Assembly (NCBI GenBank): GCA_964344185.1
Contig: CAYFMN010000005.1
Location: forward strand, 65,516-129,515
Length of the DNA: 64,000 nucleotides
Direction: 5' to 3'
Origin: an uncultured Nitrospinota bacterium
GTDB taxonomy: Bacteria; Nitrospinota; Nitrospinia; Nitrospinales; JAJDAT01
Each line of letters opens with the position of its first letter. The first letter of the stretch is position 1. The notes under the pieces were generated by a model, which was given only the letters and a program-made list of their open reading frames with translations, had not been told where the DNA came from and searched no databases. Below are positions 19,194 through 60,348 of this stretch, one piece after another. The translations under genes and the position numbers were made by a program.

Positions 19194-19284
<91 letters not shown>

Positions 19285-19349
19285 AATGTGGTATCTCTTT
19301 TAGGAAGGATAAAGATCTCTCGTTCTTTCCCGTTGCTTTCACCCTGCAA

Positions 19350-19436
19350 CGGAGAGAGAGGGATTCGAACCCTCGGTACCCGAATGGGTACAATAGATTT
19401 CGAGTCTATCGCCTTCGACCTCTCGGCCATCTCTCC
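19350..19436 (-). tRNA. tRNA-Ser(CGA), class II, no encoded CCA
   Basis: Reverse complement is GGAGAGATGGCCGAGAGGTCGAAGGCGATAGACTCGAAATCTATTGTACCCATTCGGGTACCGAGGGTTCGAATCCCTCTCTCTCCG. Anticodon loop is CTCGAAA. Confidence 0.9.
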
Positions 19437-19450
19437 AACGAACGAATGAG

Positions 19451-19524
19451 CACGCCCAAGAGGACTCGAACCTCCGACCTTCGGTTCCGCAAACCGACGC
19501 TCTATCCAGCTGAGCTATGGGCGC
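19451..19524 (-). tRNA. tRNA-Arg(GCG)
   Basis: Reverse complement is GCGCCCATAGCTCAGCTGGATAGAGCGTCGGTTTGCGGAACCGAAGGTCGGAGGTTCGAGTCCTCTTGGGCGTG. Stem TCGGT/ACCGA closes the loop TTGCGGA, giving anticodon GCG. A20 is present in the D-loop. Positions 1:72 form a G:U pair. Confidence 0.75.
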
Positions 19525-19726: not shown

Positions 19727-20326
19727 TTAAGAGACTCCCATAGGAATATAATCGGTCAACAAAATTTCATACCGCTCATGTTCAAAACCGTAAAGTTTGG
19801 GAAACCGCTTAAACGCCCAACCTTCAAAAATCCGTTTGTCCTTTTCATGAACAATAAATTGAACGGCCGGGTTAGTAGGTTCATTACCCAAAGATGTATA
19901 GTATACCTTATCCATCACAAAGTTTGGAAAAAACGCCCCAACAGTAACCGTCAAATCGGAACCAGTCAAAACAAACGACTCGCCTAAATTAACGGTTTTG
20001 ACTTCGGTTTTTTCCTCGTCTTGTTTATCCTTTATTATAAACTTTACGGCTTTCCACTTTCCTTCAACTTCTTTGGGAATTTGTATTGCGCGTTGTTGTT
20101 TTTGATTCTCGGTAATTTCCGGATGATTTTCCACCTCGGTACGCGAACCTTCGGCGTAAGCCGAACTCTCAGCTTTAACCATTGGCTTTGGGGCCATACC
20201 CGGTAAATTAACCTCGCTTAAAGGGATTTCCCTTGGCTTTTGGTTTCTCTTGGCTAAATCCGCTTCCGAACAACCAAAAGAAACAAAAGCGATAATTAAT
20301 AAAAGAGTTTTCAGTCCTTGCATCAA
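19727..20326 (-). CDS. hypothetical lipoprotein embedded in the tRNA array
   Basis: 199 aa with signal peptide and lipobox (LLIIAFVSFGC|SE). No family confidently recognised. Confidence 0.65.
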   Translation of the reverse strand: MMQGLKTLLLIIAFVSFGCSEADLAKRNQKPREIPLSEVNLPGMAPKPMVKAESSAYAEGSRTEVENHPEITENQKQQRAIQIPKEVEGKWKAVKFIIKDKQDEEKTEVKTVNLGESFVLTGSDLTVTVGAFFPNFVMDKVYYTSLGNEPTNPAVQFIVHEKDKRIFEGWAFKRFPKLYGFEHERYEILLTDYIPMGVS

Positions 20327-20347: not shown

Positions 20348-20441
<94 letters not shown>

Positions 20442-20470
20442 TTATAATTCTCAATCAATAATAGCAACAA

Positions 20471-20553
20471 CGGAGGGAGTAGGATTCGAACCCACGGAAC
20501 TTTCGTTCAACGGTTTTCAAGACCGCCGCCTTAAACCACTCGGCCATCCCTCC
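20471..20553 (-). tRNA. tRNA-Ser(TGA), class II, no encoded CCA
   Basis: Reverse complement is GGAGGGATGGCCGAGTGGTTTAAGGCGGCGGTCTTGAAAACCGTTGAACGAAAGTTCCGTGGGTTCGAATCCTACTCCCTCCG. Anticodon loop is CTTGAAA. Confidence 0.85.
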
Positions 20554-27975: not shown

Positions 27976-28036
27976 TTACTTTAATTAGTAAAAAAAGTCT
28001 TATATATATTTTAAGAAGAAGAAGGGCTTGTTAAAA

Positions 28037-28198
28037 TGTGGAAAAGCTAGCTAAGTACTCAAAATATAAAGGAAAATTCTATGAATAAATTGTTAGACAA
28101 AATGATACTTTTTTCGGACACGGAAGGATGTAACTTTTTTTACAATATTATACCTTATTTTCCACAAGGATTCACAATTAATTAACAGGTTATCCACG
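28037..28198. promoter_or_regulatory. cluster of four DnaA-box-like 9-mers in the dnaA-gyrB spacer
   Basis: tgtggaaaa at 28037-28045 (reverse complement TTTTCCACA), ttttccaca at 28158-28166, ggattcaca at 28168-28176, and ttatccacg at 28190-28198 (overlaps the dnaA stop). Consensus is TTATNCACA. Confidence 0.4.
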
Positions 28199-29524
28199 TT
28201 CTATTTTTTCGATTAAAGTTTGCACTGACCTGGATATTTCGTTGTTTTCTTTCAATAGCTTACCTATTTTTGTGTGCGAATAAATTACGGTGGTATGATC
28301 CTTCCCACCAAACTCTTTTCCGATCTCCGGTAAGGAGGATTTGGTGCGTTCCCTACACAGGAACATTGCAATTTGTCTTGGAACGGAAATATCACGAGAA
28401 CGCTTCTTGGATTTTAAATCAGAAACCTTTAAATTATAATGAGATGCGACTTGTTTCAGGATGTTTTGAATTGTAAAATTTTCTAAATGATCCTGGGAAA
28501 ACTTCTTGAAGACATTTTTGGCCAAATCCATATTTATAGGTTTTGAAGTAAAAGAAGAATATGCGATTAATCTCAATAGTATTCCTTCCAATTCCCTAAT
28601 GTTTGAGCGGATATTATTTGCTATATAAATCGCCACATCCTCGGATAGATTTATTCCTTGAATTTCTGCTTTTTTTAATAAAATCGCAACCTTAGTTTCC
28701 AAATCTGGAGGTTCCATATCCGCTATCAAACCGCATTCAAAGCGAGATCGGAGCCTTTCCTGAATTTTTTTCATTTCTTTTGGAATCGCGTCGCTTGTAA
28801 TAATAACCTGCTTGTGCGCCTCATATAGCGAATTAAACGTATAAAAAAACTCTTCCTGAGTTCGGTCCTTGCCTTCGATAAACTGAATATCGTCGACTAG
28901 TAGAACGTCTAAAGGTCGGTATCGGTCACGAAAAGCGTTCATACCATCCTTTTTCAATGACTGAATTAAATCGATAGTAAATCCTTCGGTGGAAACATAT
29001 CTGATTTTTAATTTTTTATTTTTTTCGTGAATAGCGTTACCAATAGCATGAAGGAGATGAGTTTTCCCTAAGCCAACAGAACCATAAATAAACAAGGGGT
29101 TATAGGCCATGGCGGGATTAGAGGCCACGGCTTTTGCCGCCGCGTGAGCGAATTGGTTGCAACCGCCCACTACAAAGTTTTTGAAAGTATATTTTTGATT
29201 AAGCGAGGAATTAAAACCTAAATGGTCTTGTTCGTTCGTTTCAATATAGTTGTGTTTTTCATATGAAATTTTTGTTCCGTTTCTTGCGGAATAAACTTTA
29301 AATTTAACGCGAAGCGGAGCTCCTGAAACGGTTTTTAGAGAGTTTTCTATTATATCTAGATAATTTTCTTTCAGGTATTTTTTGAAAAACTCATTGGGTA
29401 CGCCCAGAGTGAAAACCTGGCCGTCGTACGAAATTGGGGAGGTAGGGGTGAACCAGGTGTTATAGTTTTCTGGAACAACCTGATTTACTATTTCTTCTAA
29501 ACATTTGCTCCAGAGAACTTCCAT
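28190..29524 (-). CDS. dnaA: chromosomal replication initiator protein DnaA
   Basis: 444 aa with AAA+ Walker A (GSVGLGKTHLLHAIG), Walker B (LLVDDIQF), sensor region and the C-terminal domain IV HTH (...GGKDHTTVIYSHTKI...). Confidence 0.97.
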   Translation of the reverse strand: MEVLWSKCLEEIVNQVVPENYNTWFTPTSPISYDGQVFTLGVPNEFFKKYLKENYLDIIENSLKTVSGAPLRVKFKVYSARNGTKISYEKHNYIETNEQDHLGFNSSLNQKYTFKNFVVGGCNQFAHAAAKAVASNPAMAYNPLFIYGSVGLGKTHLLHAIGNAIHEKNKKLKIRYVSTEGFTIDLIQSLKKDGMNAFRDRYRPLDVLLVDDIQFIEGKDRTQEEFFYTFNSLYEAHKQVIITSDAIPKEMKKIQERLRSRFECGLIADMEPPDLETKVAILLKKAEIQGINLSEDVAIYIANNIRSNIRELEGILLRLIAYSSFTSKPINMDLAKNVFKKFSQDHLENFTIQNILKQVASHYNLKVSDLKSKKRSRDISVPRQIAMFLCRERTKSSLPEIGKEFGGKDHTTVIYSHTKIGKLLKENNEISRSVQTLIEKIERG

Positions 29525-30313
29525 AGATCTCCATTTTCTCAGGTCTAAAGACGAGGCGAAAAATTAACTGTTTTTTGAGGAATGGGAGCTATAGTAATGA
29601 AGCTCCAATTCAAAATCAATACAAAAATTTTTTTCTTTTATTTTAGATAACTATTTGATTTTAAATTGATTATTTTAAATTTCGGATTGATAAAAACTTA
29701 AAATAATTGATTTTCAACGACTTAAAATTAGAAATTTTTTTAAAAATTAGGTAATTCTAATCTGGTATATAAATTAGGTTTTTGAGCATATGTTATGAAA
29801 AATCAGCGTAATTTTATTATTTGTTTTAGTTAATTATGATAATAAATTTCATTTTCATATTTTTGTTTTTCAGAATGGCCACTGAAAAACTTTATTTAAG
29901 ACCGTCACTATTCATGAAAGTTTTCTAAAATTTGTTTTTTGAACCGATACCTACCTAAAAAACCTTGTTAAAGATTTTTTTTCAATAAGATACAAAAACA
30001 ATATCCTTCATTCTCCATAATAGGTAAGGGCAGTTTAAATCGCCTATAGATTTTTTTAAGGGAAGAACCCTTTTTTCTCCAAAGCAGAGGTTTACCTCCT
30101 TCCTCTGATTACTTGTCTAAATCGAATGTAAACCCCCTCCCTTACATTCGGTTTAGTGGTGGAAAAGGGTTCTTCTCTTTCCTACTAAATTTTGGAAAAG
30201 ATGAATTGTTTTATTTCTAAATATTGCGCGATTTAAAATTGGAATATCTATATTAAATCCGTAATTTGGGAGGAATTTTTTAAACTAACAATTAATTAGA
30301 AAGGAATTTCAAT
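29525..30313. other. AT-rich non-coding region upstream of dnaA at a gene-orientation switch; candidate oriC / DNA-unwinding region
   Basis: About 790 bp without a credible ORF. ATTGAT(T/A) repeats lie at about 29655-29715. Genes to the left (19.7-29.5 kb) are all on the minus strand and genes to the right (30.3-32.2 kb) are on the plus strand. I found no perfect TTATCCACA box here. Confidence 0.3.
30123..30162. promoter_or_regulatory. hairpin + GTTTAGTGGTGG box element, copy 3
   Basis: CGAATGTAA (30123-30131) and TTACATTCG (30142-30150) form a perfect 9-bp stem with loop ACCCCCTCCC. GTTTAGTGGTGG follows at 30151-30162. The element is nested inside an outer 13-bp inverted repeat, gaagaaccctttt (about 30062) and aaaagggttcttc (about 30164-30176). 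Confidence 0.45.
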
Positions 30314-30541
30314 ATGGCAGTAAATTTAATCAGTCGTCCTGACGTAGCTTTAAAAAATAAATCCATTAAAGAAAAGGAAACCGTAATTTCCGAGTATTTA
30401 TCAAAATATCCTGACTCGGAATCTGCGGTAAACGCTGTAAAAACCAAAATAGATTCGGCTCAAGATTTATCTCAGATTAAGTCAAATTTAAACGAGGTAT
30501 TTGCCGAAATTATAAAAGTTATGTATGCCTTAGGAAAATAG
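30314..30541 (+). CDS. hypothetical small protein (75 aa)
   Basis: The ATG is preceded by AAAGGAA. The stop lies 1 nt before the next gene start. No family recognised. Confidence 0.5.
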   Translation: MAVNLISRPDVALKNKSIKEKETVISEYLSKYPDSESAVNAVKTKIDSAQDLSQIKSNLNEVFAEIIKVMYALGK

Positions 30542-30542
30542 A

Positions 30543-30905
30543 ATGTCAAACTCGGAAGCAAATACTGATCGGATTGACCGCATGTCAGTTCGATTAGAAA
30601 AAACAAATGAAAACATAAATGATTTAACCCATGCCGTAACAGAAAATACCGCAGAGATGAAAGAGCTATGTCGAAGAATAGACGGTATTCACAGCACTCT
30701 TTATGGAAATGATGGTATGAGCGGTTTAGTTGATATTGGAAGATTCTCTAAAGAAAAAGTGGAAGAACACGAAACTTTGTTAAGAGGCAAAAATAAAAAC
30801 AATGGGTTAGTCCATGAAGTGCAAATGTTCAAGAGGGTGGCGACATACCTCGGAGGCGGAGGTATTATCGGAGCTTTTTTGGAGTTTTTTAAAAGACAAA
30901 CATAA
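30543..30905 (+). CDS. hypothetical coiled-coil protein with C-terminal hydrophobic anchor (holin-like architecture is speculative)
   Basis: 120 aa. The N-terminal half is charged and helical, and the C-terminus VATYLGGGGIIGAFLEFF is a single hydrophobic segment. Tightly coupled to 30314..30541. Confidence 0.5.
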   Translation: MSNSEANTDRIDRMSVRLEKTNENINDLTHAVTENTAEMKELCRRIDGIHSTLYGNDGMSGLVDIGRFSKEKVEEHETLLRGKNKNNGLVHEVQMFKRVATYLGGGGIIGAFLEFFKRQT

Positions 30906-31221
30906 AATTTTTAGAGAGTTGAAAGTTTTTAGGACGCTTCTAAAAATTGTCATTTTTATTGGCTTGTTATCGCCTAGCCATTGAATTTAAGAGTTAGGCT
31001 CCTGGAAAATCGGAGTTTTTAGAGGTTCCCTTTATTTAAAACCTCTCTGAATATTTTTATGAATTTAAATCTTAAAAGTTTAGAAAATATTTTTAAGCGC
31101 ATTGATTTAAGGTGAAATGCCGTTTGGAGCTTATTGAAATATCGCTTCAAATTTATATCGAGTAATTTTCAATAGGTTCTAGCGGCGTTTTTTTGAAGTC
31201 CTCTGCCATTCAAGGAGGTCT

Positions 31222-32247
31222 TTGTTAACCAAACTTAACCTTCGAGATTTTTTGTCTCGAAGGTTTTTTTATGGAGATGAAGTGATGGCTGTTTTATGCG
31301 ACTTTATTGGGAAATCGGAAAATTTGTCTAATATTTATAAAGAAAAACATATGGAGGTTGATAGCTTTAAATTAACAAAAAATAATAAGTTTAAAGCAAT
31401 AAGTAATTACGATCTTGGAATAAATTTTGTTCAACAAGAATACACGGAAAATAATCAATTTACTTCAGAAGCCGTAGTGAGGGAAGACACGGCAGTTCTA
31501 GCTTGGGGAAAATGGCCTAAAAATTGCGAAAATGGTCGAATTAGTTTCGACTCTGGAAAAAACTTTTTTTACATCATTTCGCGCGAATCAGATAAAAAAT
31601 TGATTTTAGATGGAGTCCCACGAAAAGGAAAGTTTGGTTATTCTATCCGCTTAACTGAATTTGATTTAGGAGAAGTCAAACTTTGCGCGAATAGAAGTTC
31701 TAATTTGAAATTTGAAGAATGGTCGATCAGTTTAGATGAAATTTCTAAAAATGTAGCGAATGAATATGTATCAGTTAGCGATGCCAAAGCTATTTCGACA
31801 GTAACCTGCTCTAATGTAGTTTCCGCTTCAGTCGTGGAAAATAAAGACGCGGAAAGTGTTTATTACTGGTTGGTCTTCTATCTACATCCAAATATCGATG
31901 AAAATGCAGAAGTAAAAATTTTTAACAAAGAGAATAAATTATGGAGAATAATAGCTAGAAGCAGAGCCGGCTTTTGGGAATATAACAATTCGCCTAACGC
32001 TAAAACGGAAACTTGGGTTTTAGCGTCGGCAAATGATTTTCTTCATGCTGTTTCTGAAGCTATATCTTCAAAAAAAGTAAATAGAATGGCAGGAGAAGAT
32101 TTAGTCGGAATAACAGAACAGGAGTGGAGTTTACTGAACGGTAGCTTGGTAGAAGCCGAATACTTTTCTAAAGGCATTACGTTAAATTCCGCAGATCCTA
32201 AAAATAATCCAGCCGTGTCTCAATTTTGCCTGGATTGTGAAAAATAA
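31222..32247 (+). CDS. truncated, diverged paralogue (B) of the tail-fibre-like family, lacking the conserved N- and C-terminal domains
   Basis: Shares several blocks with paralogues A and C: NFVQQEYTEN...WPKNCENGRISFDSG...IRLTEFDLGEVKL, EYVSVSD...VYYWLVF...AEVKIFNKENKLWRIIA...WEYNN, and NDFLHAVSEAIS...NRMAGEDLVGITEQEW...KGITLNS...NPAVSQF. The TTG start sits only 3 nt after AGGAGG, so the true start is uncertain. This may be a gene remnant. Confidence 0.55.
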   Translation: MLTKLNLRDFLSRRFFYGDEVMAVLCDFIGKSENLSNIYKEKHMEVDSFKLTKNNKFKAISNYDLGINFVQQEYTENNQFTSEAVVREDTAVLAWGKWPKNCENGRISFDSGKNFFYIISRESDKKLILDGVPRKGKFGYSIRLTEFDLGEVKLCANRSSNLKFEEWSISLDEISKNVANEYVSVSDAKAISTVTCSNVVSASVVENKDAESVYYWLVFYLHPNIDENAEVKIFNKENKLWRIIARSRAGFWEYNNSPNAKTETWVLASANDFLHAVSEAISSKKVNRMAGEDLVGITEQEWSLLNGSLVEAEYFSKGITLNSADPKNNPAVSQFCLDCEK

Positions 32248-32321: not shown

Positions 32322-32714
32322 TTAACTATTTTCAAGGATAACTTTTTGAATGGTTGGAATTACTTCTTTGATGCTGAGAGGTTTACTAATAAAACCGTTC
32401 ATCCCTGCGTCAAAACAATTTTGCTGATCGCTTTTATCTTCATTGGCGGTCATGGCAATGATTGGGGTTAGTTTTTTCGACGTTTCTTTTTCTAAGCGGC
32501 GGATTTCCCTAGTCGCCTCTAACCCATCCATTTCAGGCATTTGCATATCCATTAAAATTGCGTCGAACTCATTTTTTTGAAACTCTTCGAGAGCCAGTTT
32601 GCCATTTTCGACGGCAACGACATTATGTCCTTTCCGGGTGAGCAACTTTGTCGCTAGGGTTAGATTCAATGGGGTATCGTCGACTAACAATAGTTTTAAG
32701 TTTTCTTGGTCCAT
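32322..32714 (-). CDS. stand-alone response-regulator receiver (CheY-like) protein
   Basis: 130 aa with LLVDD, phospho-acceptor context [12 protein letters not shown], and the T (AMTA) and K (SKP) motifs. Confidence 0.85.
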
Positions 32715-32843: not shown

Positions 32844-33740
32844 TTAGAATGATTTCCAAGCGCCAATTATTCTACCCACTACTGGGTCGGGATATTCTTT
32901 TAAGTTTACGATTTGAATTTGTGCGGAGGGGTTAAGAGGTCGAAGAATCAAGAAACTTTTTCCCACTTCTACATATTTTGCCGTTAAGCCATTTTCATGA
33001 AAGATTGCGTACATTTGATTTTTTTCTATGGTTTTATCATTTCGGTCAATAATTACTATGTCTCCCGAGTGTAATGTAGGTTCCATAGAATCTCCTTCAA
33101 CACGGCTGGCTACAAGGTTATTACGTCGACCTGTGGCGCGGGTATGTAATAAGACATAGTCTTCGATATTCTCATGCTGAATGATGGGTTGTCCCGCCGC
33201 AATAGAAGAATCGGTTAGAGGAATTGAAATATAATCTTCTTGGTTAATTGCGGGGCCTCTTTGATCCGGATAGCTATTGTAAACTTTTAGCTGAGGAAGA
33301 ACTCGCTCTGATTCAGGTTTATCGTCGGTTAATATATTTTGAATTGAGGTTCCCAAACTAGTGCAAATTTTATTTATTAATTCTGTCGAAAATGACCAGG
33401 TCCCTTTTTCATAAAACTCCAAAGAAAGTTCGGGAATATCGATTTTTTGAGCGAGTTTTTTAACGGAAAACCCTTTTTGTTCTCTCAAATTCTTAATCTT
33501 CTTTGCGATTTTTTTATCCCATTGAGAAGATGACTTTTTGCCTGTCAGGAGCCAATTGAAATCCGCATGAAAATATGAAGAAATAGTCAACAATATTTCA
33601 GAAGATGGAACCGTTCTCCGCTGTTTCCATTTTTTAAGAGTGTCGTAGTTAAGATCGGTAACCTGCGAAAAAGATCGCAGAGAATTCCCTTCCAATAATT
33701 GAAAAAACCGATCAAAAATTTCCCCACCATTAAGCTTCAT
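32844..33740 (-). CDS. LexA/CI-like autocleavable repressor: two N-terminal HTH domains + S24 peptidase domain
   Basis: 298 aa. Carries two Cro/CI-XRE-type HTH segments (...LRSFSQVTDLNYDTLKKWKQ... and ...GFSVKKLAQKIDIPELSLEFYEKG...), an Ala-Gly cleavage-site context IAAGQP, and S24 motifs GDSMEPTL (Ser) and GLTAKYV (Lys). Confidence 0.8.
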   Translation of the reverse strand: MKLNGGEIFDRFFQLLEGNSLRSFSQVTDLNYDTLKKWKQRRTVPSSEILLTISSYFHADFNWLLTGKKSSSQWDKKIAKKIKNLREQKGFSVKKLAQKIDIPELSLEFYEKGTWSFSTELINKICTSLGTSIQNILTDDKPESERVLPQLKVYNSYPDQRGPAINQEDYISIPLTDSSIAAGQPIIQHENIEDYVLLHTRATGRRNNLVASRVEGDSMEPTLHSGDIVIIDRNDKTIEKNQMYAIFHENGLTAKYVEVGKSFLILRPLNPSAQIQIVNLKEYPDPVVGRIIGAWKSF

Positions 33741-33760
33741 AAAAACCCATCAAAAAATTC

Positions 33761-33815
33761 TTGACAAAAAGGGACAATTGTCCCATATTTAATATCATGC
33801 GGGGACAAATGTACC
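33761..33815. promoter_or_regulatory. divergent promoter/operator region: TTGACA -35-like hexamer plus two palindromic operator sites
   Basis: TTGACA lies at 33761-33766. GGGACAATTGTCCC at 33771-33784 is a perfect 14-bp palindrome. GGGACAAATGTACC at 33802-33815 matches it at 12 of 14 positions. The operator centres are 31 bp apart. Confidence 0.55.
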
Positions 33816-34053
33816 TATAAATTGCCATAATATCTGGTTACCAAAAATTATTTTGGTTGTTTTCAATTGCCAAACTTATTGTTTTTTGGGTATTTGATTC
33901 GCCAAATACATTATGGCTCAGACTCTTTTAGGAATTATACCATCGATTGTTTTATTGCAAAGGACCTTTATGAAAATATTCGAAATTTTTAGACCAAAGG
34001 TAGGAATGTTTTTAAGAGATTGTCGTATTCCAATTTAATTCAGTTTTTAGAGA

Positions 34054-34077
34054 GGCAGACAACTTCTGCCATTTTTT
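34054..34077 (+). terminator. weak hairpin + T-run upstream of 34101 ORF
   Basis: ggcaga caact tctgcc followed by atttttt. The stem is only 6 bp. Confidence 0.3.
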
Positions 34078-34100
34078 GAAAGAAACATAGAAGTGGTGGA

Positions 34101-34550
34101 ATGCGACGGATGAAAAAATTGAAAATAAGAAGAGATAATTCTGCAATAAATCGTATGCAAATTTGTGGATCGCCTCGAGAAAATAAACAAAAAAGCAAAA
34201 AAGGAAAGGGATGTGGAGCTAGGGGAATGGTTCCAACTGTCGCAGGTTGGAAGTGTCTCTACTGCGGATTTTTTCGTTATTTTCCTCGCGTTGATGAAGA
34301 TCGGTTATGGGCGCACTTTAAGTGGGCTCGGGAATATTGGAAAGCGTACTATTTTAATGGCAATTATTACATAAATGGCTGTCCTGTATCTTTCGGTGTC
34401 GATCCTATTCCGCCATATCTATATGATGATTTAATGGAAGTTGAAACGCCAATTTGGTTTCGAGCCTTTGCTAATTTGGATGAAGATGATTTTGATCAGT
34501 ATCTGGATTTATATACCCGTAGTAGTTATTTTGTGGATTTGAAAGAGTAA
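34101..34550 (+). CDS. hypothetical protein with basic N-terminus and Cys-pair (zinc-ribbon-like) motif
   Basis: 149 aa. Cys pairs occur in QICGSP...KGCGARG...WKCLYCGFF. An alternative ATG lies at 34110. No family recognised. Confidence 0.5.
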   Translation: MRRMKKLKIRRDNSAINRMQICGSPRENKQKSKKGKGCGARGMVPTVAGWKCLYCGFFRYFPRVDEDRLWAHFKWAREYWKAYYFNGNYYINGCPVSFGVDPIPPYLYDDLMEVETPIWFRAFANLDEDDFDQYLDLYTRSSYFVDLKE

Positions 34551-34567
34551 AGCAGGGAGAAAAGTTT

Positions 34568-34912
34568 GTGAAAAAAAAAGGTTTAGATAATTGGAACGAA
34601 GATGAGGCAGTGTTAGATAGTAAACTGCAATTTTTCCAGAATGAGCATTTGGATCTAATGATTCAATCCAGATTGGCTCAATATATTCCCAATAGTGGGA
34701 GTAAAGAAAGTTGCTATCGATATTTGAAAAAAGAGCCTATTGATTTGGAAGACGCAAAATTAACGGATAAACAAATGATTGCTATTAGCTTGGTATTTTA
34801 TGGAAATATCCCGAAATCAAGAGCTGCTCGAGCTATGAAAATTACTTATCAATCGCTGAACGATCATATCAACGGAGCTTTAAAGAAGATCGAAAGAAGC
34901 TTATCTTGTTAA
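34568..34912 (+). CDS. small HTH protein resembling sigma-70 region 4 only
   Basis: 114 aa with a GTG start. LTDKQMIAISLVFYGNIPKSRAARAMKITYQSLNDHINGALKKIERSL matches the L(T/S)xxQRxV..L.Y.....EIA..LG.S...V...L.RA..KL pattern of sigma-70 region 4. Regions 2 and 3 are absent. Confidence 0.55.
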   Translation: MKKKGLDNWNEDEAVLDSKLQFFQNEHLDLMIQSRLAQYIPNSGSKESCYRYLKKEPIDLEDAKLTDKQMIAISLVFYGNIPKSRAARAMKITYQSLNDHINGALKKIERSLSC

Positions 34913-42834: not shown

Positions 42835-42909
42835 TGGCTCCGGAGACAGGACTCGAACCTGTAACACAGCGGTTAACAGCCGCTTGCGCTACCATTGCGC
42901 CACTCCGGA
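42835..42909 (-). tRNA. tRNA-Asn(GTT), CCA encoded
   Basis: Reverse complement is TCCGGAGTGGCGCAATGGTAGCGCAAGCGGCTGTTAACCGCTGTGTTACAGGTTCGAGTCCTGTCTCCGGAGCCA. Anticodon loop is CTGTTAA. Confidence 0.9.
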
Positions 42910-45773: not shown

Positions 45774-48700
45774 ATGAAACCACTTCGCAAAATCTATTCG
45801 CTTGTTTTCATTCTATTGTTAATCGGAAATTTTGGATGTGGGGCGCCGCATTCAAAACCATATGCTGTTGCTTTAAATAAAGAAGCAAATGAAGCCGAAA
45901 CTTTAGCCGCCTCTGGAAATTATCGTAAAGGAGCGGAAGCATACGAAACCGCTTTAGAAAATTATAAGAAACAAAACAACAACGCAGGTATTTTATATTC
46001 TCTGGGACAAATGGGAATTATGCAAAAACGGGCTGGCGACTACGACGCGGCTTTAAAAACATTTAATGAAGCTAAAAATGTTGGCGTGAAAGTGAATGGC
46101 GATGCGGCGGAAATTGACGCTCATATTGGCGATGTTTATATGTTTATGGGCGATTTTAATAAAGCTCGGACCCAATACAATAACGCTTTGCAAACTCATA
46201 GCGGTTTTGTTTTTCCGACATCCTATGCGGGTCCTCCAAGTAAGGAAGAACTTTCTGAATTGATTCGTAAATCTAGCGCGATTGTCCGTTCGCAAGTTAA
46301 TTTGGGAGCTTTGAATTTATTTGAAGGCAAATTGGACGCCGCCGAAGCCGAGCTTAAAAAAGCGGAAAAATTGACCAAAGATATTTTATACGTTGGTAAT
46401 CATCCTATTTATGGGATGGTGTATAAGCCTGATACAGACGTATTCGAAGGAACAGGTTTTGCTAAAACTTTCCTGGGAGCTGTATACAAAGAAAAAGGCG
46501 ACGCACAAAAAGCGAAAGGCTATTTGCGCGAGGGTATGGCTTCTTTTGAAAAAGGAAACTCCGCTTTTGGAAAATCCGTCAACAGCGCCCTTTCGTTTCA
46601 ATTTGATTGGTTATCCGATTCCCAAAACGCTGAACGAAGAGTCGCCGCTGGCGATTATCCTTCTGCCGTTGCAGAGTATCAAAAACTAATCGGTCGTTAT
46701 AAAGAAAAAGGCGATTTTCGTCGTCAATTGATGGCTATCGAGAGAGCCGGTTGGCTTTTGCGAGAAATGGGTCAATACAGCGACGCCCTGGAATTACTGG
46801 CTCAAGGGGCTGAAATAGGCAGGCAGAAAAACGGCGACGCAGCGGAAATTGACGCTAATATTGGGGACGTTTATTTGTTTGCGGGAAACCGGCAGCGGGC
46901 TATGGAATATTTTGAAAAATCTTTAGCGCCTCACCAAGGATTTTCCATGCCAACGGGTAAAGCCGTTGAAGTTCCTAAAAAAGGCCAAATGTATAACTGG
47001 ATGAGAATCGCAAAAGCGATTATCCACGCTCAGGTCAATCGAGGAACGGTTTATTACTTTAATAAAAATCCGAATAAGGCTCTTGAGGCTTTGGACGAAG
47101 CAAAACAAATGGTTGACGCCGTTTTAGAAACCGCGAACCATCCAATCCGTGGCGTGTTTTATAGAGCCGATTCGGATTTGTATGAGGGTATTGGATTTTA
47201 CCGCGCAATTCGCGGCGCCGTTTTTGGCGAATTGAAACGGTTTGATCAATCTTCCAAGGAATTTGATTTGGCCTTAAAAATGTTTGTGCAGGCTGGCAGA
47301 CCCTATGGAGCTTTGATTACGCGTGCGCTTCGAATTCAAACAGAAACCTTGCAACCTGGCAAGAAGTTTTCCCAATCAGATATTTCCCGATATCAAGGTT
47401 TTTTAGTGGAAGCAGAAATGTTTGGAGCTTTAGATCTAGTTTGGCGAGTGGGTTATAGAGCCGGTTCCCTGTTGGCAAAAAACAAAAATTATGCGGAGGC
47501 AAAAAACTTTTTGGTCAAAGCCGTTGACGCTATTGAAAAGACTCGCTCGAACATTCGCGAAGATACAGTAAAGCAAATGTTCTCCGGATCGGTTCAAGAC
47601 GTTTATGAGGCCATTGTCGGTTTACTATTTGACATGGGAGAATTTTCTGAAGGTTTTAATTATTTAGAAAGAGGGAAAGCAAGAGCTTTCCTGGATATGC
47701 TGGCCGGTAGATCCTTAAAACCGAAAGTCGCCGCCGATCCGCAGATTATTCGTCAAATTGCCGACTTGGATAAACAAATTGAAAAAACGGCGCGAAGTTT
47801 AAAAGCTTTAAAAGGCGCAGAAAAACTTGGCGTTTACAAAAAGTTTAAGAGTTTATTAAAAGAAAAAAGTCGAGCGTTAGAGAAAATTAAAGATCAAAGC
47901 TTAAGTTACGCTTCTTCAATGTCGGTAGCTACCGCTTCGGCGAAAAAAATTCAAAGCTCATTGCCTAAAGGTGCGCTATTGATTTCTTATTTCCTGGAAG
48001 ATTCCCGCGCTGTTATTTGGACTGTCGAGCAAAGTTCGATTGAAGCGACCCTGGCAAAAAACGGCGGAAAGAAGATTGCTCAATGGGCTGCAGATTATAG
48101 AGAAGCTCTAGCTTCTGGCCAAATGCAGTTGGCAGAATCATTGGGAAGCAAACTTTATGATAGTTTAATTCAACCTGTCCGAAGTCGTTTGGACCCAAAA
48201 CAAAAACTTATTTTGGTTCCTTCCGGCGCTTTACATTACTTGCCATTTGCCGGACTTCATGGAAAGGACGGCAAATACCTGATAGAAAATCAAACAGTTT
48301 CTGTGCTTCCAAATGCGTCAAGTTTATTTTACGTTGAAGGGATTATTAAGACCGATAAAGGGAAGATACTTGCTTTTGGAGATCCTCAAAGAGACCAAAA
48401 AGAATCGCGTCTAAAATACGCTAATAAAGAAGTTGAAGCGGCTAGTAAATTATTTCCTAAAAAAATTACTTTAACCGGCGAAAGCGCTAAAGAATCCGTT
48501 TTAAAAAACTTATCAAAAATTGACGCAGAAGTATTACACTTTGCCGTACACGGACGTTTTGATGAACGAGATCCTTTGAAATCTGCATTATTATTAGCTA
48601 AAGATTCTAACGAAGACGGGGATTTAGAAACTTACGAGATATATGGATTGAATTTAAATTCCAATCTTGTGGTTTTAAGCGCTTGCGAATCTGGAATCGG

Positions 48701-48953
48701 TAAGCTTACGCGCGGCGATGAAGTGCAGAGTTTGAATCGCGCTTTTATTTATGCTGGAGCTGGCGGCGTGATAGCCAGTTTGTGGAAAGTTTCCGACGAA
48801 TCCACATTTAAACTAATGACTTATTTTTACGAAGAATTGTCCAAACGCGGACCGGCGGATGCCTTGCGTTTGGCTCAAATAAAATTAATGAAAGAGTTTC
48901 CTTCACCCTATCATTGGGCGGCTTTTTATTTAACCGGTAGATTGGATTCTTAG
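45774..48953 (+). CDS. exported TPR-repeat protein with C-terminal CHAT (caspase-like) protease domain
   Basis: 1059 aa. The N-terminal leader is LVFILLLIGNFGCGAP. Multiple TPR-like pairs follow. The CHAT domain carries a His/Cys dyad context: LHFAVHGRF (His) and LVVLSACESGIG (Cys). Confidence 0.8.
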   Translation: MKPLRKIYSLVFILLLIGNFGCGAPHSKPYAVALNKEANEAETLAASGNYRKGAEAYETALENYKKQNNNAGILYSLGQMGIMQKRAGDYDAALKTFNEAKNVGVKVNGDAAEIDAHIGDVYMFMGDFNKARTQYNNALQTHSGFVFPTSYAGPPSKEELSELIRKSSAIVRSQVNLGALNLFEGKLDAAEAELKKAEKLTKDILYVGNHPIYGMVYKPDTDVFEGTGFAKTFLGAVYKEKGDAQKAKGYLREGMASFEKGNSAFGKSVNSALSFQFDWLSDSQNAERRVAAGDYPSAVAEYQKLIGRYKEKGDFRRQLMAIERAGWLLREMGQYSDALELLAQGAEIGRQKNGDAAEIDANIGDVYLFAGNRQRAMEYFEKSLAPHQGFSMPTGKAVEVPKKGQMYNWMRIAKAIIHAQVNRGTVYYFNKNPNKALEALDEAKQMVDAVLETANHPIRGVFYRADSDLYEGIGFYRAIRGAVFGELKRFDQSSKEFDLALKMFVQAGRPYGALITRALRIQTETLQPGKKFSQSDISRYQGFLVEAEMFGALDLVWRVGYRAGSLLAKNKNYAEAKNFLVKAVDAIEKTRSNIREDTVKQMFSGSVQDVYEAIVGLLFDMGEFSEGFNYLERGKARAFLDMLAGRSLKPKVAADPQIIRQIADLDKQIEKTARSLKALKGAEKLGVYKKFKSLLKEKSRALEKIKDQSLSYASSMSVATASAKKIQSSLPKGALLISYFLEDSRAVIWTVEQSSIEATLAKNGGKKIAQWAADYREALASGQMQLAESLGSKLYDSLIQPVRSRLDPKQKLILVPSGALHYLPFAGLHGKDGKYLIENQTVSVLPNASSLFYVEGIIKTDKGKILAFGDPQRDQKESRLKYANKEVEAASKLFPKKITLTGESAKESVLKNLSKIDAEVLHFAVHGRFDERDPLKSALLLAKDSNEDGDLETYEIYGLNLNSNLVVLSACESGIGKLTRGDEVQSLNRAFIYAGAGGVIASLWKVSDESTFKLMTYFYEELSKRGPADALRLAQIKLMKEFPSPYHWAAFYLTGRLDS

Positions 48954-48956
48954 CGC

Positions 48957-51017
48957 TTGGAACCGAATAAAAAAAGCGCAAGGCAGTTGGTTTCTGCAAG
49001 CGTCGCGATTTTAGCGTGCTTATTGGCGATAGTCTTTTCTAATTGGTCGCCGATAGAAACGCTTGAAAATAAAACCATCGATTGGCGGCTTCGGTTTCGT
49101 CTTCCTAACTTTGAGGCGGGTAAAGAAGTGGCGGTCGTTTTGATAGACGATGCGGCGTTGGACGTGTATCCATATCGAAGCCCTGTGCCTCGCGATTTAC
49201 TAGCAAAATTAATAGATGTTCTTTCCGAAGCGGGCGTTAAACGAATTGGGTTGGATGTTTTTCTAAAAGATTTGACCTGGGAAGACGAGGACGAAGCGCT
49301 TGCGGAATCTTTAAGAGCTAATGGCCGAACGACGCTTGTATCTACTTTTCGCGAAGAAGACGGCAAAATAGTATGGGATTTACCTCATCCAAAATTTTTA
49401 GATTCTGTAGACTCCACAGGCTTGGCGGATTTACCGATAGATCCAATCGATCAAATTGTGCGGGAAGCGACGGCTCTAAAAAATAATTCGGAAACAATTG
49501 TTCCAACGCTTTCCGCCGCAATGCTTTTGGCTTCTAAAACATCGGAAGTGGGGAAACCGGAAGCTCCGAAAATTTTACAAGAAGCATTGCCGTCTTTTGC
49601 CCGTAAAGGTCAAAAGTTTATTGTTGATTTTTTAGGACCGCCTTCTTCCGTTAGCCGTGAAAAATATGCGATTAAGACGTTTCCGGCATCAGGCGTTCTT
49701 ACGGGATTTTTACCTAAGGAATGGTTTGCAGGCAAGTACGTTTTTATTGGCGCCGGTTTTTCCGATAACACGGACACCTTTCGCACTCCTTATTATAGTG
49801 GAAAATACAATTATCCCTTAACGCCTGGAGTGGAAATTCATGCGAACGTTTTGGCCACGCTTTTGAGCGGGGGAAAAATAAAAGCTTCTACAAATGTTCA
49901 AAAATTCGGGACAATTTTTCTAGGGGCTTTAGTGTCGGTAATTATCTCTTTTGTTTTTTCGCCGGTAATAGCGGCTTTTTTTGAAATTGTTTTCATTGCC
50001 GGGTTTGTTTTTGCAACGTTTGCAATGTTTGAAAAGGCGAATCTGCTTTTGCCAATGATACCCGTTGGCTTGGCGGTAGGTTTTGCTTTTATTGGAGCTA
50101 TAATTTATAAGCTAACCTGGGAAGGACGCCAAAAGCGGTGGATAAAAAACGCTTTTCAAATGTACCTGTCGCCAGAGTTCGTAGAAACCTTGTCCAAAAG
50201 CCCTGAACAGCTAAATTTGGGAGGGGAGGAAAGAGAACTCACTATAATGTTTACCGATCTGCAAGGATTTACCGCTATTTCGGAAACAGTCGAACCGAAA
50301 GAATTGGTGAACCTCCTGAGCGATTATTTTGATGGTATGACAGAAATTATTTTTAGGTACGGAGGCACTCTTGATAAATACGTTGGCGACGCTATTATGG
50401 CCTTTTGGAACGCTCCAACAGATCAAACGGACCATGCCGAAAGATCGGTTTTAGCGGCTATAGATATGATTGAGTTTACTGAAAATATGAGCCATTCGTT
50501 TCGAAAAAGAGGGAATCCTGAGATTCGAACGCGTATTGGAATCAACACGGGAAAAGCTGTTGTTGGTAATGTTGGTTCCAGAAAGAGGTTTAACTATACG
50601 GTAATGGGCGACGTGGTTAATACAGCGGCGAGATTGGAAAGCGTTAACAAGCAATATGGAACCTTTTTAACAATAAGCGAATCAACTTTTGATCGCGTAC
50701 GGGATAAAGTTCGAGCCAGGAAACTGGATGTTGTTCGAGTTAAAGGAAAAACCCAGCCGGTTGCTATTTATGAATTAATTGGTAGAAAAGGAAGGTCTTT
50801 AGACAGCGAGCGCGAACAGGTTATGGAGGCTTACTGCGAAGGGTTGGAGGCATATAATCGCCGGCATTGGGAAACCGCCATTCATCATTTTATATCGGCT
50901 CTCCAAATTGATCCAAACGACGGCCCGAGTAAAATTTATTTAGAGAGATGTAGAACGCTACGCGATAACCCACCTAAGAAAAGTTGGGATGGAGTTTTTA
51001 ATTTATTATCCAAATAA
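48957..51017 (+). CDS. CHASE2 sensor-domain class III adenylate/guanylate cyclase
   Basis: 686 aa with a TTG start 3 nt after the CHAT gene stop. An N-terminal TM is followed by a periplasmic CHASE2-like region and 3 TM helices. Cyclase motifs are MFTDLQGFT, YVGDAIMAFWNAP, IGINTGKAVVGNVGS and YTVMGDVVNTAARLES. The tail is TPR-like. Confidence 0.85.
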   Translation: MEPNKKSARQLVSASVAILACLLAIVFSNWSPIETLENKTIDWRLRFRLPNFEAGKEVAVVLIDDAALDVYPYRSPVPRDLLAKLIDVLSEAGVKRIGLDVFLKDLTWEDEDEALAESLRANGRTTLVSTFREEDGKIVWDLPHPKFLDSVDSTGLADLPIDPIDQIVREATALKNNSETIVPTLSAAMLLASKTSEVGKPEAPKILQEALPSFARKGQKFIVDFLGPPSSVSREKYAIKTFPASGVLTGFLPKEWFAGKYVFIGAGFSDNTDTFRTPYYSGKYNYPLTPGVEIHANVLATLLSGGKIKASTNVQKFGTIFLGALVSVIISFVFSPVIAAFFEIVFIAGFVFATFAMFEKANLLLPMIPVGLAVGFAFIGAIIYKLTWEGRQKRWIKNAFQMYLSPEFVETLSKSPEQLNLGGEERELTIMFTDLQGFTAISETVEPKELVNLLSDYFDGMTEIIFRYGGTLDKYVGDAIMAFWNAPTDQTDHAERSVLAAIDMIEFTENMSHSFRKRGNPEIRTRIGINTGKAVVGNVGSRKRFNYTVMGDVVNTAARLESVNKQYGTFLTISESTFDRVRDKVRARKLDVVRVKGKTQPVAIYELIGRKGRSLDSEREQVMEAYCEGLEAYNRRHWETAIHHFISALQIDPNDGPSKIYLERCRTLRDNPPKKSWDGVFNLLSK

Positions 51018-56894: not shown

Positions 56895-58847
56895 TTAAGA
56901 TTTAGCCTGTAATCCCCACGAGTGTAAGAATTGGTCTTTACCTTGCTCCGTTTCATAACGACAACGTAAATCTTGGCCGGATGCCTGACCAGTTATGTCA
57001 ACAGTTCCACGAAAGATATGCTGATCTCCAATCAACGGAAGACCTTGTTGGGTCATAGGAACGGATGTCCATTCGGAACCGCCGTTTCTGCTGACGTAGA
57101 AATTTCCTGGTCCATCTGAATCAGAATGTTCAATTCGCGACCAAATGTAACCTTCAGATGGAATGAATCCAGGATCATAAGCTTTACTGCGCAAATCCAT
57201 ACCGCTGCGCACAGAGTCGTAATTCAAGCGATATTGGGCTACGAAAGGATTTTGAGAAGAATCGTTAGAGTAAAGCGTTACTCCACGGACTACTGAATTG
57301 ACTGAGTTGGACCATCCGCCGGATTCTTCCCATTGTGCGTCCGTGATAGCCGCGAGATTGGTTCCTGACATGCGATTAGCGGCCTGCACTGAAATAGCTT
57401 GCGATACAGCGTGAAGCATTTCGTTGGTTTCGGCTTGTACGCCGGTGTAATCGTTTGCAGCGCTGCTAATATAGGTATGTGGACTCGTTGGAGGCGTAAA
57501 GTTTGAAGTCCACAGTGCGGATTTAGTAAAACGCACTTCATCGAGCCAACCGTCAAAATAATTTCCGGAAGGGGTCGCAAGAGGTTTAGTGCCTAAGAAT
57601 AATTTACTGCTGCTATGGACGCCACAATCTGCGTCGCCTAAAGGACCGCTGGTAACTTTTAGGATTCCATCTTCAAATATTCTATATAATCGTCCTTGTC
57701 GTACAAACGCTATATGGTACCACTGGCCCGTGGCGAGCGTGGATTCTCTGGTAAAATGAAAACTAAAATTAGTGTGAGAAGGATGAGCATAAGTTAATTG
57801 ATATATATTTCCACTCGCATTAAAGATTTCCCAAGAATCATTTGCAGAATCACCAACCCCTAAAATATTTGATCCTCCACTTGTAGTATTAAACCTAATC
57901 CAAAAATCGATTGTGAAATCATTAGCACCGAAAGAAAAATCGTCCGAAGCAGAATCGGATCGGATATAATCTCCTGTTCCGTCAAACAATAGCGACGATC
58001 CTCCGAACTTACTTTGCGTAGTGTCTATCTGAGCGTTGCCGTAAGTTGTAAAAGCATGTCCTGAAGGTCCGTTATCAATAATTGTTGTACTTGCATCAGC
58101 GCCGTCCCCATGAATCAACAGTTTCGTTGTGTCGTGGATTGCATTGTTATATTCCCAAGTACTGCCATTATTCTTAGCGATAGTTCTCCAAACGGAGCCA
58201 TCTTGGTTGAAGATTTTAATTTCGGTTCCGTCTCCAAAATTGGAAACAGGGTCGAGAGCTAACCAGTAATAGACACTTTGAGAATTAAGCGTTTCTGTAG
58301 CCGAGCCGCTATTAATATCTGACCAAGAGGATGTATCTGTCTTCTGAATTTCAGAATCGCACAGTGAAACATATTCAGAGGCTACGTTTGTCTGATCGGC
58401 TATTAATTCAATTTCGTGAATTCTGCAGTAATCTTGACTCCAAACGGCTGTTATCACGAGGTAATACCACCGAAAATTAGTACTATTAGAAAACGGAATG
58501 GCGGTCATTGGCCCAACTGTAACTGAATCTTCAGAATCATAAATTACTTCTGGAAAATTTGTTTCTGTATGCAATGACGTCGCCCCATTAGCTATTGGAT
58601 TTTGATTTTCTATTGGAGTTGTATTGGATCCGTAGATTTTAAAATCTTTCAAGGAACCTCCACCACTATCCGCAGAACTGTTCAGAACAATTTTGTTAAC
58701 TTTTCGAGCCTCTCCAATATCGATTGCAACCCACCTTAGATCTCCGCCTGTTGATATGCTATACCAAATTGCTGATTCTGTTGATGCACTATCGTTGTCT
58801 ATAGCCTTAGAACCGCCTCCAGTCGGAATGTGCGTTAGAATGAACAA
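56895..58847 (-). pseudogene. tail-fibre-like family paralogue C, downstream (C-terminal) reading frame: discoidin-like + LamG-like + conserved C-terminal modules
   Basis: 650-aa frame with no plausible independent N-terminus. It continues the alignment to paralogue A exactly where 58807..60324 stops. The LamG/ConA-like module (...FGGSSLLFDGTGDYI...FTIDFWIRF...WYHIAFV...LDEVRF) is encoded at about 57482-58142. The C-terminal 250 aa are highly similar to paralogue A. Confidence 0.6.
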
Positions 58848-60324: not shown

Positions 60325-60348
60325 ATTGCTATTTCCTTTGAGTATGAA

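Follow-up and report, generated by a model that had tools for sequence, protein, structure and literature searches.

A CI/LexA-type switch in an uncultured Nitrospinota bacterium

Genetic switches of the CI/LexA type are textbook biology. In the system that governs the R and F pyocins of Pseudomonas, the S24 repressor PrtR is cleaved upon DNA damage and thereby frees the adjacent small activator PrtN, which turns on a domesticated phage-derived cluster. In the gene transfer agent (GTA) system of Caulobacter crescentus, the repressor RogA occupies the core promoter of an operon of two genes, and their small products, GafY and GafZ, jointly serve as activators and anti-terminators of a head-tail cluster that is inherited vertically and of dispersed accessory genes (PMC11150451). 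The locus discussed here occupies positions 32844–34912 of a 64,000-nucleotide stretch (the window) from an uncultured Nitrospinota bacterium and comprises the gene of a repressor of 298 amino acids (aa), a divergent intergenic region with palindromic operators, and the genes of a 149-aa and a 114-aa protein. It is best read as an exapted immunity and activator cassette of prophage or GTA type: with a probability of about 0.55, an ancient phage-derived element has been passed on vertically beside dnaA throughout the phylum, and the locus represents its immunity and early-regulator cassette, which was retained, most likely exapted, in this lineage after the structural genes had disappeared from the site.

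With repressors of the lambda CI/LexA type (MEROPS S24), the encoded protein shares the S24 domain, the Ala-Gly cleavage site, the Ser/Lys dyad, and an N-terminal helix-turn-helix (HTH) as well as palindromic operators about three helical turns apart over a divergent promoter and probable autoregulation. In contrast to them, it carries two unrelated HTH domains in tandem (one Phage_CI_repr-like, one of the XRE type), is chromosomally encoded at a single locus with vertical, phylum-wide inheritance, and is probably co-transcribed with a receiver protein. The switch is of a known kind in an unusual form, featuring a dual-HTH repressor, two orphan partners, and this receiver, and it behaves like a core gene set of the phylum, with the same dnaA locus, the same operator, and the same two orphan partner genes. 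Its wiring resembles that of PrtR/PrtN and of RogA/GafYZ, although homology is not claimed. Unlike PrtR/PrtN, it has two activator candidates of unrelated families, neither with a Pfam match of the PrtN type, and the cluster found in relatives harbors head as well as tail genes and is absent from this locus. The likeness to RogA/GafYZ consists of a repressor placed over a two-gene operon of small products; RogA, however, is not an S24 protein, and no family match suggests that the 149- and 114-aa proteins are related to GafY and GafZ.

The repressor and its operators

The repressor gene (32844–33740, minus strand) encodes a protein in which Pfam recognizes Phage_CI_repr at residues 34–70 (HTH1; 26.8 bits, cutoff 22), an XRE-type HTH_3 domain at residues 82–134 (HTH2; 34.4 bits, cutoff 23; delimited as 81–139 in our feature list), and Peptidase_S24 (PF00717) at residues 174–280 (67.6 bits, cutoff 23.3). 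The best-fitting PHROG is the transcriptional repressor phrog_4 (E 6e-37). Pairwise alignment to E. coli LexA places A182-G183 within the segment IAAGQP at the scissile A84-G85 bond, S218 of the segment GDSMEP at S119, and K255 at K156. The AAG cleavage site, S218, and K255 are invariant in 16 of 16 orthologues sampled phylum-wide, and both HTH domains are kept throughout the same sample. Among close relatives, the S24 half is nearly invariant, with 81–89% identity over the whole protein. As judged from the domain, the Ala-Gly bond, and the dyad, the repressor is a Peptidase S24 protein of the autocleavage type, and the original prediction of an S24 repressor with two HTH domains, an AAG cleavage context, the GDSMEP serine, and a downstream lysine is borne out in full. 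A canonical LexA was considered and rejected since the score of the NCBIfam model TIGR00498, at 35.4 bits, stays far below its cutoff of 110.95 and the match covers the S24 part only; no LexA_DNA_bind winged helix is found by Pfam, the N-terminus consisting of Phage_CI_repr and HTH_3 instead. HTH1 and HTH2 display no detectable similarity to each other, which excludes them as recent duplicates. Searches of PDB sequences with the repressor sequence and profile returned XRE HTH domains only and did not pick up the S24 part.

Divergently from the repressor, a predicted sigma-70-type promoter (plus strand, 10/12 in a consensus scan) aims at the genes of the 149- and 114-aa proteins. It is composed of TTGACA (33761–33766), a 17-nt spacer, and CATATT (33784–33789), and the assignment to the 149/114 operon draws on the consensus match and on conservation, both hexamers being invariant across six close loci. 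Operator O1, the perfect palindrome GGGACAATTGTCCC (33771–33784), occupies the promoter spacer, while O2 (GGGACAAATGTACC, 33802–33815), a 12/14 match, lies just past the predicted rightward transcription start at a distance of 31 bp, centre to centre. The two palindromes and the TTGACA hexamer had been noted before, with a spacing of three helical turns, and this holds; the statement that the palindrome immediately follows the hexamer is slightly off, as AAAA separates the two. By chance, about 0.14 sites with at most one mismatch are expected per 64 kb (37/4^12 per position), as compared to the two observed 31 bp apart; the only other operator-like sequence in the window at up to two mismatches, at 63515, has two. 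O1 is found upstream of every repressor orthologue examined, the half-sites of O2 are invariant in the six close loci, and −35, O1, −10, and O2 are invariant or nearly so among close relatives. This arrangement supports the view that the operators, by predicted binding, are well placed to repress the rightward promoter.

At distant loci, the operator is likewise found just upstream of the repressor, with TTGACA on the opposite strand beside it, followed by a −10-like hexamer. Palindrome and TTGACA precede the repressor orthologue at five close and four distant loci and are degenerate at a fifth distant one: the operator reads GGGACACTTGTCCC in Nitrospina watsonii (locus L009), GGGACATTTGTCCC in loci L013 and L015, AGGACATTTGTCCT in L014, and, in degenerate form, CGGACATTTATCCG in Candidatus (Ca.) Nitrohelix (L011). 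A second, weaker site 31–32 bp from O1 is present in N. watsonii and L014.

In 251 kb of sequence (the window plus the related loci), the perfect palindrome occurs only at the repressor's own promoter. A pattern scan of metagenomes for TTGACA-N2-4-GGGACA-N2-TGTCCC returned 51 loci, eight of which are further Nitrospinota repressor loci with the site just upstream of the repressor in each. In two others, the same promoter-operator precedes unrelated XRE proteins with an HTH similar to HTH2 (E ~1e-9), which points to HTH2 as the operator-reading domain. The remainder look like background, with 21 of the 44 non-Nitrospinota matches situated inside open reading frames (ORFs). No additional regulon member emerged from the pattern scan; the search for further GGGACA-N2-TGTCCC sites proposed along with the original prediction has thus been run on 251 kb and on metagenomes, and it did not extend the regulon. 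The two XRE-HTH proteins (L024, 1800–2471; L062, 560–1314) lack an S24 domain, and one of them has an apparent cupin-like C-terminus, as judged by eye; in L024, a second palindrome, GGTACAATTGTACC, is located 27 bp away. Both loci indicate that the pair of HTH2 and operator exists outside Nitrospinota.

The same distribution bears on the proposal that the repressor is a non-canonical LexA of Nitrospinota, GGGACA-N2-TGTCCC the SOS box of the phylum, and the 149/114 operon one member of its regulon. All Nitrospinota genomes sampled encode full-length orthologues (46–60% identity), seemingly one at each locus; in several sources these go by the name "LexA family" or "SOS-response repressor LexA", and the LexA-type cleavage site and Ser/Lys dyad are intact. 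The DNA-binding part, however, is of the XRE/CI type and not a winged helix, the LexA equivalog score amounts to 35 bits where 111 are required, no SOS gene is nearby, and the perfect box is confined to the repressor's own promoter in the 251 kb and in eight of eight Nitrospinota loci from the pattern scan. We therefore regard a phylum-wide LexA as unlikely.

Inheritance across Nitrospinota

The closest genomes to the window are metagenome-assembled genomes of marine Nitrospinota. Five related contigs display an identical gene order with 76–89% protein identity: gyrA, gyrB, dnaA (28190–29524, minus strand), a 790-bp gap, the genes of a 75-, a 120-, and a 341-aa protein, a response regulator, and the repressor, followed on its other side by the 149- and 114-aa proteins, a 507-aa membrane protein, ETF-beta, and a radical-SAM enzyme. 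The response regulator (32322–32714, minus strand) is a single-domain, CheY-like receiver of 130 aa (Response_reg, E 1e-30); its gene immediately follows that of the repressor in the same orientation, with no terminator-like site between the two, and is probably co-transcribed with it.

Beyond this clade, full-length repressor orthologues with 46–60% identity occur throughout the phylum, including N. watsonii, Ca. Nitrohelix vancouverensis, and Ca. Nitromaritima. Five distant loci carry orthologues of the 149-aa (34–47% identity) and 114-aa proteins (37–43%) on the divergent side of the repressor, and the response regulator directly follows the repressor in four of these five. The core set (response regulator, repressor, operator, and the 149- and 114-aa proteins) is kept in N. 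watsonii, Nitrohelix, and three other genomes, its proteins being 35–60% identical over the phylum as a whole; a response regulator with 50–56% identity stands after the repressor in L011, L013, L014, L015, L016, L022, L053, L063, and L064. Taken together, sequence and comparison indicate that the S24 repressor is intact, that its operators are embedded in a consensus promoter, and that four genes are co-inherited with the operator phylum-wide. In several Nitrospinota, a large, poorly conserved gene (401–830 aa, no family) is found between the repressor and the 149-like gene (L011, 5590–7821; L013, 8415–9953; L015, 8612–9817; L016, 888–3380); neither the window's clade nor N. watsonii has it.

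Ratios of nonsynonymous to synonymous substitution (dN/dS), obtained by the Nei-Gojobori method against five relatives, are 0.03–0.06 for the repressor, 0.07–0.10 for the 149-aa gene, 0.07–0.11 for the 114-aa gene, and 0.04–0.06 for the response regulator, with ETF-beta as a control at 0.04–0.07; synonymous sites are saturated in these comparisons (dS ~1–2). Reading frames are intact in six close and at least 13 distant loci, and the 360-bp intergenic region is 77% identical among close relatives despite the saturated synonymous sites. On this evidence, the genes and sites of the module are in use and under strong purifying selection. A decaying, non-functional prophage remnant, a reading to which the lack of phage structural, integrase, or replication genes in the window might lend itself, is effectively refuted by these selection data: dN/dS lies between 0.03 and 0.11 in all four genes, the same as for ETF-beta, frames are intact, the S24 domain is nearly invariant, and intergenic conservation far exceeds that of the saturated synonymous sites. 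We consider it very improbable.

A phage-like head-tail cluster beside dnaA in relatives

No integrase or structural phage gene was found anywhere in the 64-kb window, the remaining large ORFs of which encode housekeeping, cell-envelope, and signalling proteins; the module is not a complete prophage, as had been recognized from the outset. In distant genomes, phage-like genes fill the space between the response regulator or repressor and dnaA and are transcribed towards the module. Structural genes such as a domesticated prophage would have are thereby seen in relatives within flanks of about 10 kb on each side, some copies being truncated, and the window has none. In L015, a large terminase (TerL; phrog_38, E 1.5e-111), a portal protein (E 7.6e-77), and a partial head protease form a series ending at dnaA, and L013 contains the phage genes of L015 in truncated form. 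L014 features Phage_connect_1 and Phage_tube_2 genes along with that of a 749-aa protein. N. watsonii and Nitrohelix encode a head-tail adaptor (phrog_442), a tail fibre (phrog_4492, E 1e-85), Phage_tube_2, and a 1009- or 976-aa protein with a weak, sub-threshold match to Phage-tail_3. A match to the Phage_portal family is also among the cluster genes of the relatives, and one contig of the type with the phage-like cluster is listed in IMG/VR. In none of the distant loci was an integrase or att site seen (~10 kb of flank on each side). In the window, which shares the dnaA…ETF neighbourhood with these relatives, the cluster is replaced at the locus by the three small lineage-specific genes of the 75-, 120-, and 341-aa proteins.

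The cluster diverges at about the pace of its hosts. The 1009-aa tail protein is 40–50% identical where the repressor is 53–60% and ETF-beta 56–66% identical; within the pair L013/L015, TerL is 82% identical and repressor and ETF-beta are both 86% identical. The order of fibre, (response regulator), and repressor is the same in L009, L011, L014, and L016. In cultured relatives (N. watsonii, Ca. Nitrohelix), the flanking cluster thus keeps pace with the host in its divergence, a pattern characteristic of domesticated phages, GTAs among them. The simplest reading of these comparisons is one ancient phage-derived element at a fixed dnaA site, which would have been inherited vertically and eroded unevenly, its regulatory end always being kept. 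By its gene content, the cluster is eroding independently in the sister lineages L013 and L015. The portal protein is reduced to a 184-aa fragment in L013 (11685–12239) and is full-length (406 aa) in the closely related L015 (15353–16573); L015, in turn, has no tail genes and carries an outer-membrane beta-barrel gene in their place. To term the switch an orphan, as the original prediction did, is misleading given a phylum-wide, vertical cassette that flanks a phage-like cluster in other Nitrospinota. No report of such an element or of a domesticated phage in Nitrospinota was found in the literature.

It might be argued that the module is a host regulator which never belonged to a phage-like element and that the dnaA-proximal region is a hot spot of insertion. 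The module is indeed intact where the structural cluster is absent or decaying (L013, L015, and the window), its transcription proceeds away from the cluster, and neither integrase nor att site was seen at any locus. Yet orthology of the structural genes across genera, together with a divergence close to that of host genes, speaks against independent insertions; the order from fibre to repressor recurs in the four loci named above, and S24 repressors of the CI type with divergent promoters are typical of prophage immunity regions (phrog_4). An insertion hot spot next to an unrelated host regulator is therefore a rather improbable account.

The 149- and 114-aa partner proteins

The 149-aa protein (34101–34550, plus strand) is a Nitrospinota-specific orphan, the true start of which is probably the conserved ATG at 34110. 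An exhaustive search among 1.84 billion representative proteins retrieved homologues in only 15 clusters at 50% identity, and neither the protein (Pfam, PHROG, NCBIfam, PADLOC) nor the 15 family members (Pfam) matched any family. It contains a single CxxC pair, C52/C55; invariant residues include G37-C38-G39, C52-x-Y-C55-G, W70, F73, and E78, with H72 nearly invariant and C22 conserved in most aligned relatives. An AlphaFold2 (AF2) model, computed from an alignment of the 15 sequences of the representative search, is of low confidence, with a mean predicted local distance difference test (pLDDT) score of 62, and Foldseek yields no fold match, the best E-values being 1.3 (PDB) and 1.0 (viral structures). 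A zinc ribbon of the Ogr/Delta type finds no support, there being one CxxC rather than two knuckles and no family or fold match. The Zn-ribbon assignment made earlier is accordingly not confirmed, the protein having a conserved Cys/His pattern without a fold match; of the Cys pairs described, C52/C55 stands and no second CxxC pair exists. Metal binding by the putative C/CxxC/H site is possible and a reasonable guess, which would make the protein a putative metal-binding partner or regulator.

In the 114-aa protein (34568–34912, plus strand), the C-terminal half (residues 60–114) was modeled by AF2, from an alignment of 11 close homologues, as three helices with pLDDT 74–91. The top PDB matches of this half in Foldseek are region 4 of extracytoplasmic function (ECF) sigma factors and of FliA: the model superimposes on SigD region 4 (3vfz) with a root-mean-square deviation (rmsd) of 0.8 Å over 55 residues (TMt 0.82) and on sigma-E region 4 (2h27) with 1.5 Å over 57 residues, and SigL region 4 (3hug) is also matched, at Foldseek E-values of no better than 0.04–0.3. 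A motif, LTDKQ...VFYG....AA.AMKIS.QA...H...ALKKI, resembles region 4.2. Family matches are weak, with DUF134 at E 0.09 (13.8 bits, cutoff 27) and sigma-factor models at 0.006–0.07, and the window protein does not match Sigma70_r4 or Sigma70_r4_2 (PF04545, PF08281) in Pfam. Among eight relatives, DUF134 is hit in seven (best E 0.0012), Sigma70_r4 in three (0.0027), and Sigma70_r4_2 in four (0.018), all below threshold; JGI annotation names relatives UPF0251. A comparison of the family profile with PDB sequences gave only spurious cyanovirin matches and was discarded. No region 2 was detected by Pfam in the N-terminal half. With sigma-70 region 4 and ECF domain 4, DUF134/UPF0251, and YlxM/SP_1288, residues 60–114 share the HTH arrangement; they differ from these families in that regions 2 and 3 are lacking, scores stay below thresholds, and the N-terminal 56 residues have no counterpart. 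We accept the modeled C-terminal half as a sigma-region-4-like HTH, in agreement with the earlier view of an isolated region 4, although not as a sigma factor, since the protein could not act as one by itself without regions 2 or 3.

The 114-aa gene always directly follows the 149-aa gene, with a 4-nt overlap in relatives and adjacent in the window, which suggests that the two proteins work together. Against PADLOC defence models, the proteins of the module gave generic HTH and receiver matches only.

The intergenic leader

About 300 conserved nucleotides separate the rightward promoter from the 149-aa ORF. A candidate leftward promoter of the repressor, TTTGCA-16-TGgTATAAT (33934–33961, minus strand; 10/12 in the consensus scan, extended −10), sits within a nearly invariant block and faces the rightward promoter. 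As in the face-to-face switches of P2 and 186, initiation from the leftward (33961–33934) and rightward (33761–33789) elements would give ~130 nt of convergent transcription. In contrast to P2 and 186, this layout derives from consensus matches, and an alternative, proximal leftward promoter is available in a −10-like hexamer that abuts O1 and is present in all lineages; the distant intergenic regions are too short for a face-to-face arrangement and must use the −10 next to O1.

Further along, a third palindrome, CCAAAA-N4-TTTTGG (33841–33856), is the sole perfect match in the window and is kept in the six close loci; it was not seen in the distant loci. A possible leader ORF of 22 codons (MKIFEIFRPKVGMFLRDCRIPI; 33970–34038, plus strand) has an AAGGA Shine-Dalgarno sequence and an ATG that are invariant in six loci. 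A 1-nt indel in L003 and L004 alters its C-terminal frame, which makes coding doubtful and suggests constraint at the nucleotide level. It ends 15 nt ahead of a terminator-like hairpin, GGCAGA...TCTGCC with a T-run (34054–34077, plus strand), a candidate attenuator ~30 nt before the 149-aa ORF. Terminator scan and folding assign −13.3 kcal/mol (z −2.7) to the hairpin (34054–34070) preceding the T-run. A C-G pair of the window is T-A in relatives, a compensatory change as judged by eye; RNAalifold, however, found no convincing covariation in the leader (covariation term +0.65), and its pairing of O1 with O2 is an artefact of their similarity. The switch region contains no Rfam family.

Proposed mechanism

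Repressor dimers bound to O1 in the promoter spacer and to O2 would occlude RNA polymerase and silence the 149/114 operon, and the same operators would overlap or block transcription of the repressor, resulting in autoregulation. Upon DNA damage, RecA filaments would elicit self-cleavage at A182-G183, as the conserved catalytic residues suggest. Cleavage would part the HTH domains from the dimerising S24 domain, and the promoter would open. The ~300-nt leader with its terminator-like hairpin would constitute a second checkpoint that attenuates read-through. The 149- and 114-aa proteins might then jointly activate or anti-terminate distant promoters, the target in other Nitrospinota conceivably being the head-tail cluster, and the probably co-transcribed single-domain response regulator might supply phosphorelay input.

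Several points weigh against an exapted phage-derived cassette working in this manner. Binding of the repressor to the operators, its RecA-dependent cleavage, and inducibility are inferences from sequence throughout. Transcription of the 149/114 operon leads away from the structural cluster, and in the stretches examined the structural genes are preceded by neither an operator nor a shared motif; consequently, only adjacency and co-inheritance speak for a regulatory tie between the module and the phage-like genes. The cluster is visibly decaying in several lineages where the module is intact, as illustrated by the portal fragment of 184 aa in L013 and by the sole head module of L015. The region-4 matches of the 114-aa protein have weak Foldseek E-values (0.04–0.5), and HTH domains of LuxR/NarL, SP_1288, and KorA match it too; no usable model was obtained for its N-terminal 56 residues, and the 149-aa protein has no assignable fold. 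The module may serve its host in a role that has nothing to do with particles, or may have been a host regulator all along; likewise, the structural cluster may exist elsewhere in the genome, and the repressor may have more targets.

In its furthest extension, which we put forward tentatively and do not expect to hold in every part, the reading of an exapted cassette would be that Nitrospinota carry a vertically inherited, GTA-like head-tail element by dnaA, run by an SOS-type dual-HTH repressor via an undescribed two-protein activator or anti-terminator. The latter would pair a Cys/His orphan with a free-standing sigma-region-4-like protein that might serve as a split or appropriated sigma module, while in the window's lineage the particle genes would have been lost and the switch exapted to host genes, e.g., lectin-like loci that share the 16-mer described below. 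Nitrospinota are the main marine nitrite oxidisers. If the pattern of a head-tail cluster diverging in step with its hosts is real, gene transfer or lysis induced by DNA damage could be approached by experiment in globally important nitrifiers, a new pair of small transcription factors would be at hand, and the window would present a clean natural case of a regulatory cassette that outlived its element. For the window alone, the gain is one of annotation, in that three "hypothetical" genes and an intergenic region are given a specific, testable role.

Lectin-like paralogues and a shared promoter element

The 341-aa protein (paralogue B) is a paralogue of a 751-aa protein (paralogue A) and of 650- and 505-aa proteins encoded in the window, and these paralogues carry Laminin_G_3 and F5/8-type-C lectin-like domains. 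One paralogue set adjoins a ShlB/FhaC transporter. No phage fibre family in PHROGs is matched; the paralogues resemble lectin-like proteins that are secreted or displayed at the surface rather than phage fibres. The original prediction had suggested, as an inference, that the switch might control dispersed "fibre/peptidase" loci, which is not supported as stated since the proteins in question are lectin-like. The module does lie near paralogue B, the 341-aa gene being two genes from the repressor. Of the CCGCCAC box said to be shared by these loci, copies exist upstream of the 751- and 505-aa genes, and none upstream of the 341-aa gene or its operon. The boxes (60325–60420, upstream of the 505-aa gene on the minus strand, and 4250–4260) are each followed by CCCCTTGT, and the one upstream of the 505-aa gene is part of a 10-bp inverted repeat, CGCCCCTTGT...ACAAGGGGCG.

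A weaker version of the link from switch to paralogues survives through an exact 16-mer, CATAATAGGTAAGGGC, although nothing ties the 16-mer to the switch. Only two copies occur in the window, ~300 nt upstream of the 75-120-341 operon (30016–30031, plus strand) and ~220 nt upstream of the 751-aa gene (4385–4400, minus strand), and the element is conserved in the clade. In sequence, it looks like a −10 element and start region without a −35.

Control of the lectin-like loci (751 aa, 1921–4176; 75-120-341, 30314–32247; 505/650 aa, 56895–60324) by the switch via the 114-aa protein would accord with the position of paralogue B, two genes from the repressor and in the place where other lineages hold phage structural genes, and with the 16-mer common to the 75-120-341 operon and the 751-aa gene, as a good −10 without recognisable −35 is expected of activator-dependent promoters. 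Moreover, the 120-aa protein, a coiled-coil/transmembrane protein, weakly resembles the last gene product of the phage-like cluster in L011 and L016 (E ~0.005). No motif, however, is common to the upstream regions of the paralogues and the switch region, the CCGCCAC box is missing in front of paralogue B, no test made identifies the paralogues as phage fibres, and the 149/114 pair is kept in genomes in which, over the stretches examined, homologues of the 75-, 120-, and 341-aa proteins were not detected, so that these proteins cannot be ancestral targets. Such control is, in our estimate, improbable.

Between dnaA and the 75-aa gene, downstream of the 16-mer, a structured element of ~125 nt (30058–30182, plus strand) has a minimum free energy of −52 kcal/mol (z −7.2) and is closed by a long helix, AAGGGAAGAACCC / GGGTTCTTCTCTTTCC. 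It is kept in L001, L003, and L004, with a compensatory change from CCC/GGG to CTC/GAG in L001, and is missing in L002 and L005. Neither the element nor the region upstream of the 75-aa gene matches an Rfam family; by its predicted structure, it may be a leader or small RNA.

Other features of the window

The 75-, 120-, and 341-aa proteins as such match no Pfam or PHROG family, and family models built for the 341- and 75-aa proteins have no match in the distant loci. The 507-aa membrane protein has no match in Pfam, PHROG, NCBIfam, or PADLOC. Between dnaA and the 75-aa gene, DnaA boxes show no enrichment. Locally, 9-mers resembling DnaA boxes form a group only at 27976–28200 (three, with one mismatch each), between gyrB and the 3′ end of dnaA, and not in the 790-bp gap upstream of dnaA. 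No ORF exists between dnaA and gyrB, and dnaN and recF are hence not in their usual place there.

Five tRNA genes in two groups (19197–19524 and 20353–20553, minus strand) flank a 199-aa ORF (19727–20326), and one more is located at 42838–42909 (minus strand). Since no tRNA gene adjoins the module, the locus has no tRNA-type attachment site. At 45774–51017 (plus strand), the gene of a protease-like TPR-CHAT protein of 1059 aa precedes that of a CHASE2-adenylate/guanylate cyclase. The TPR-CHAT protein may be the "peptidase" of the original prediction, although no test made relates it to the switch.

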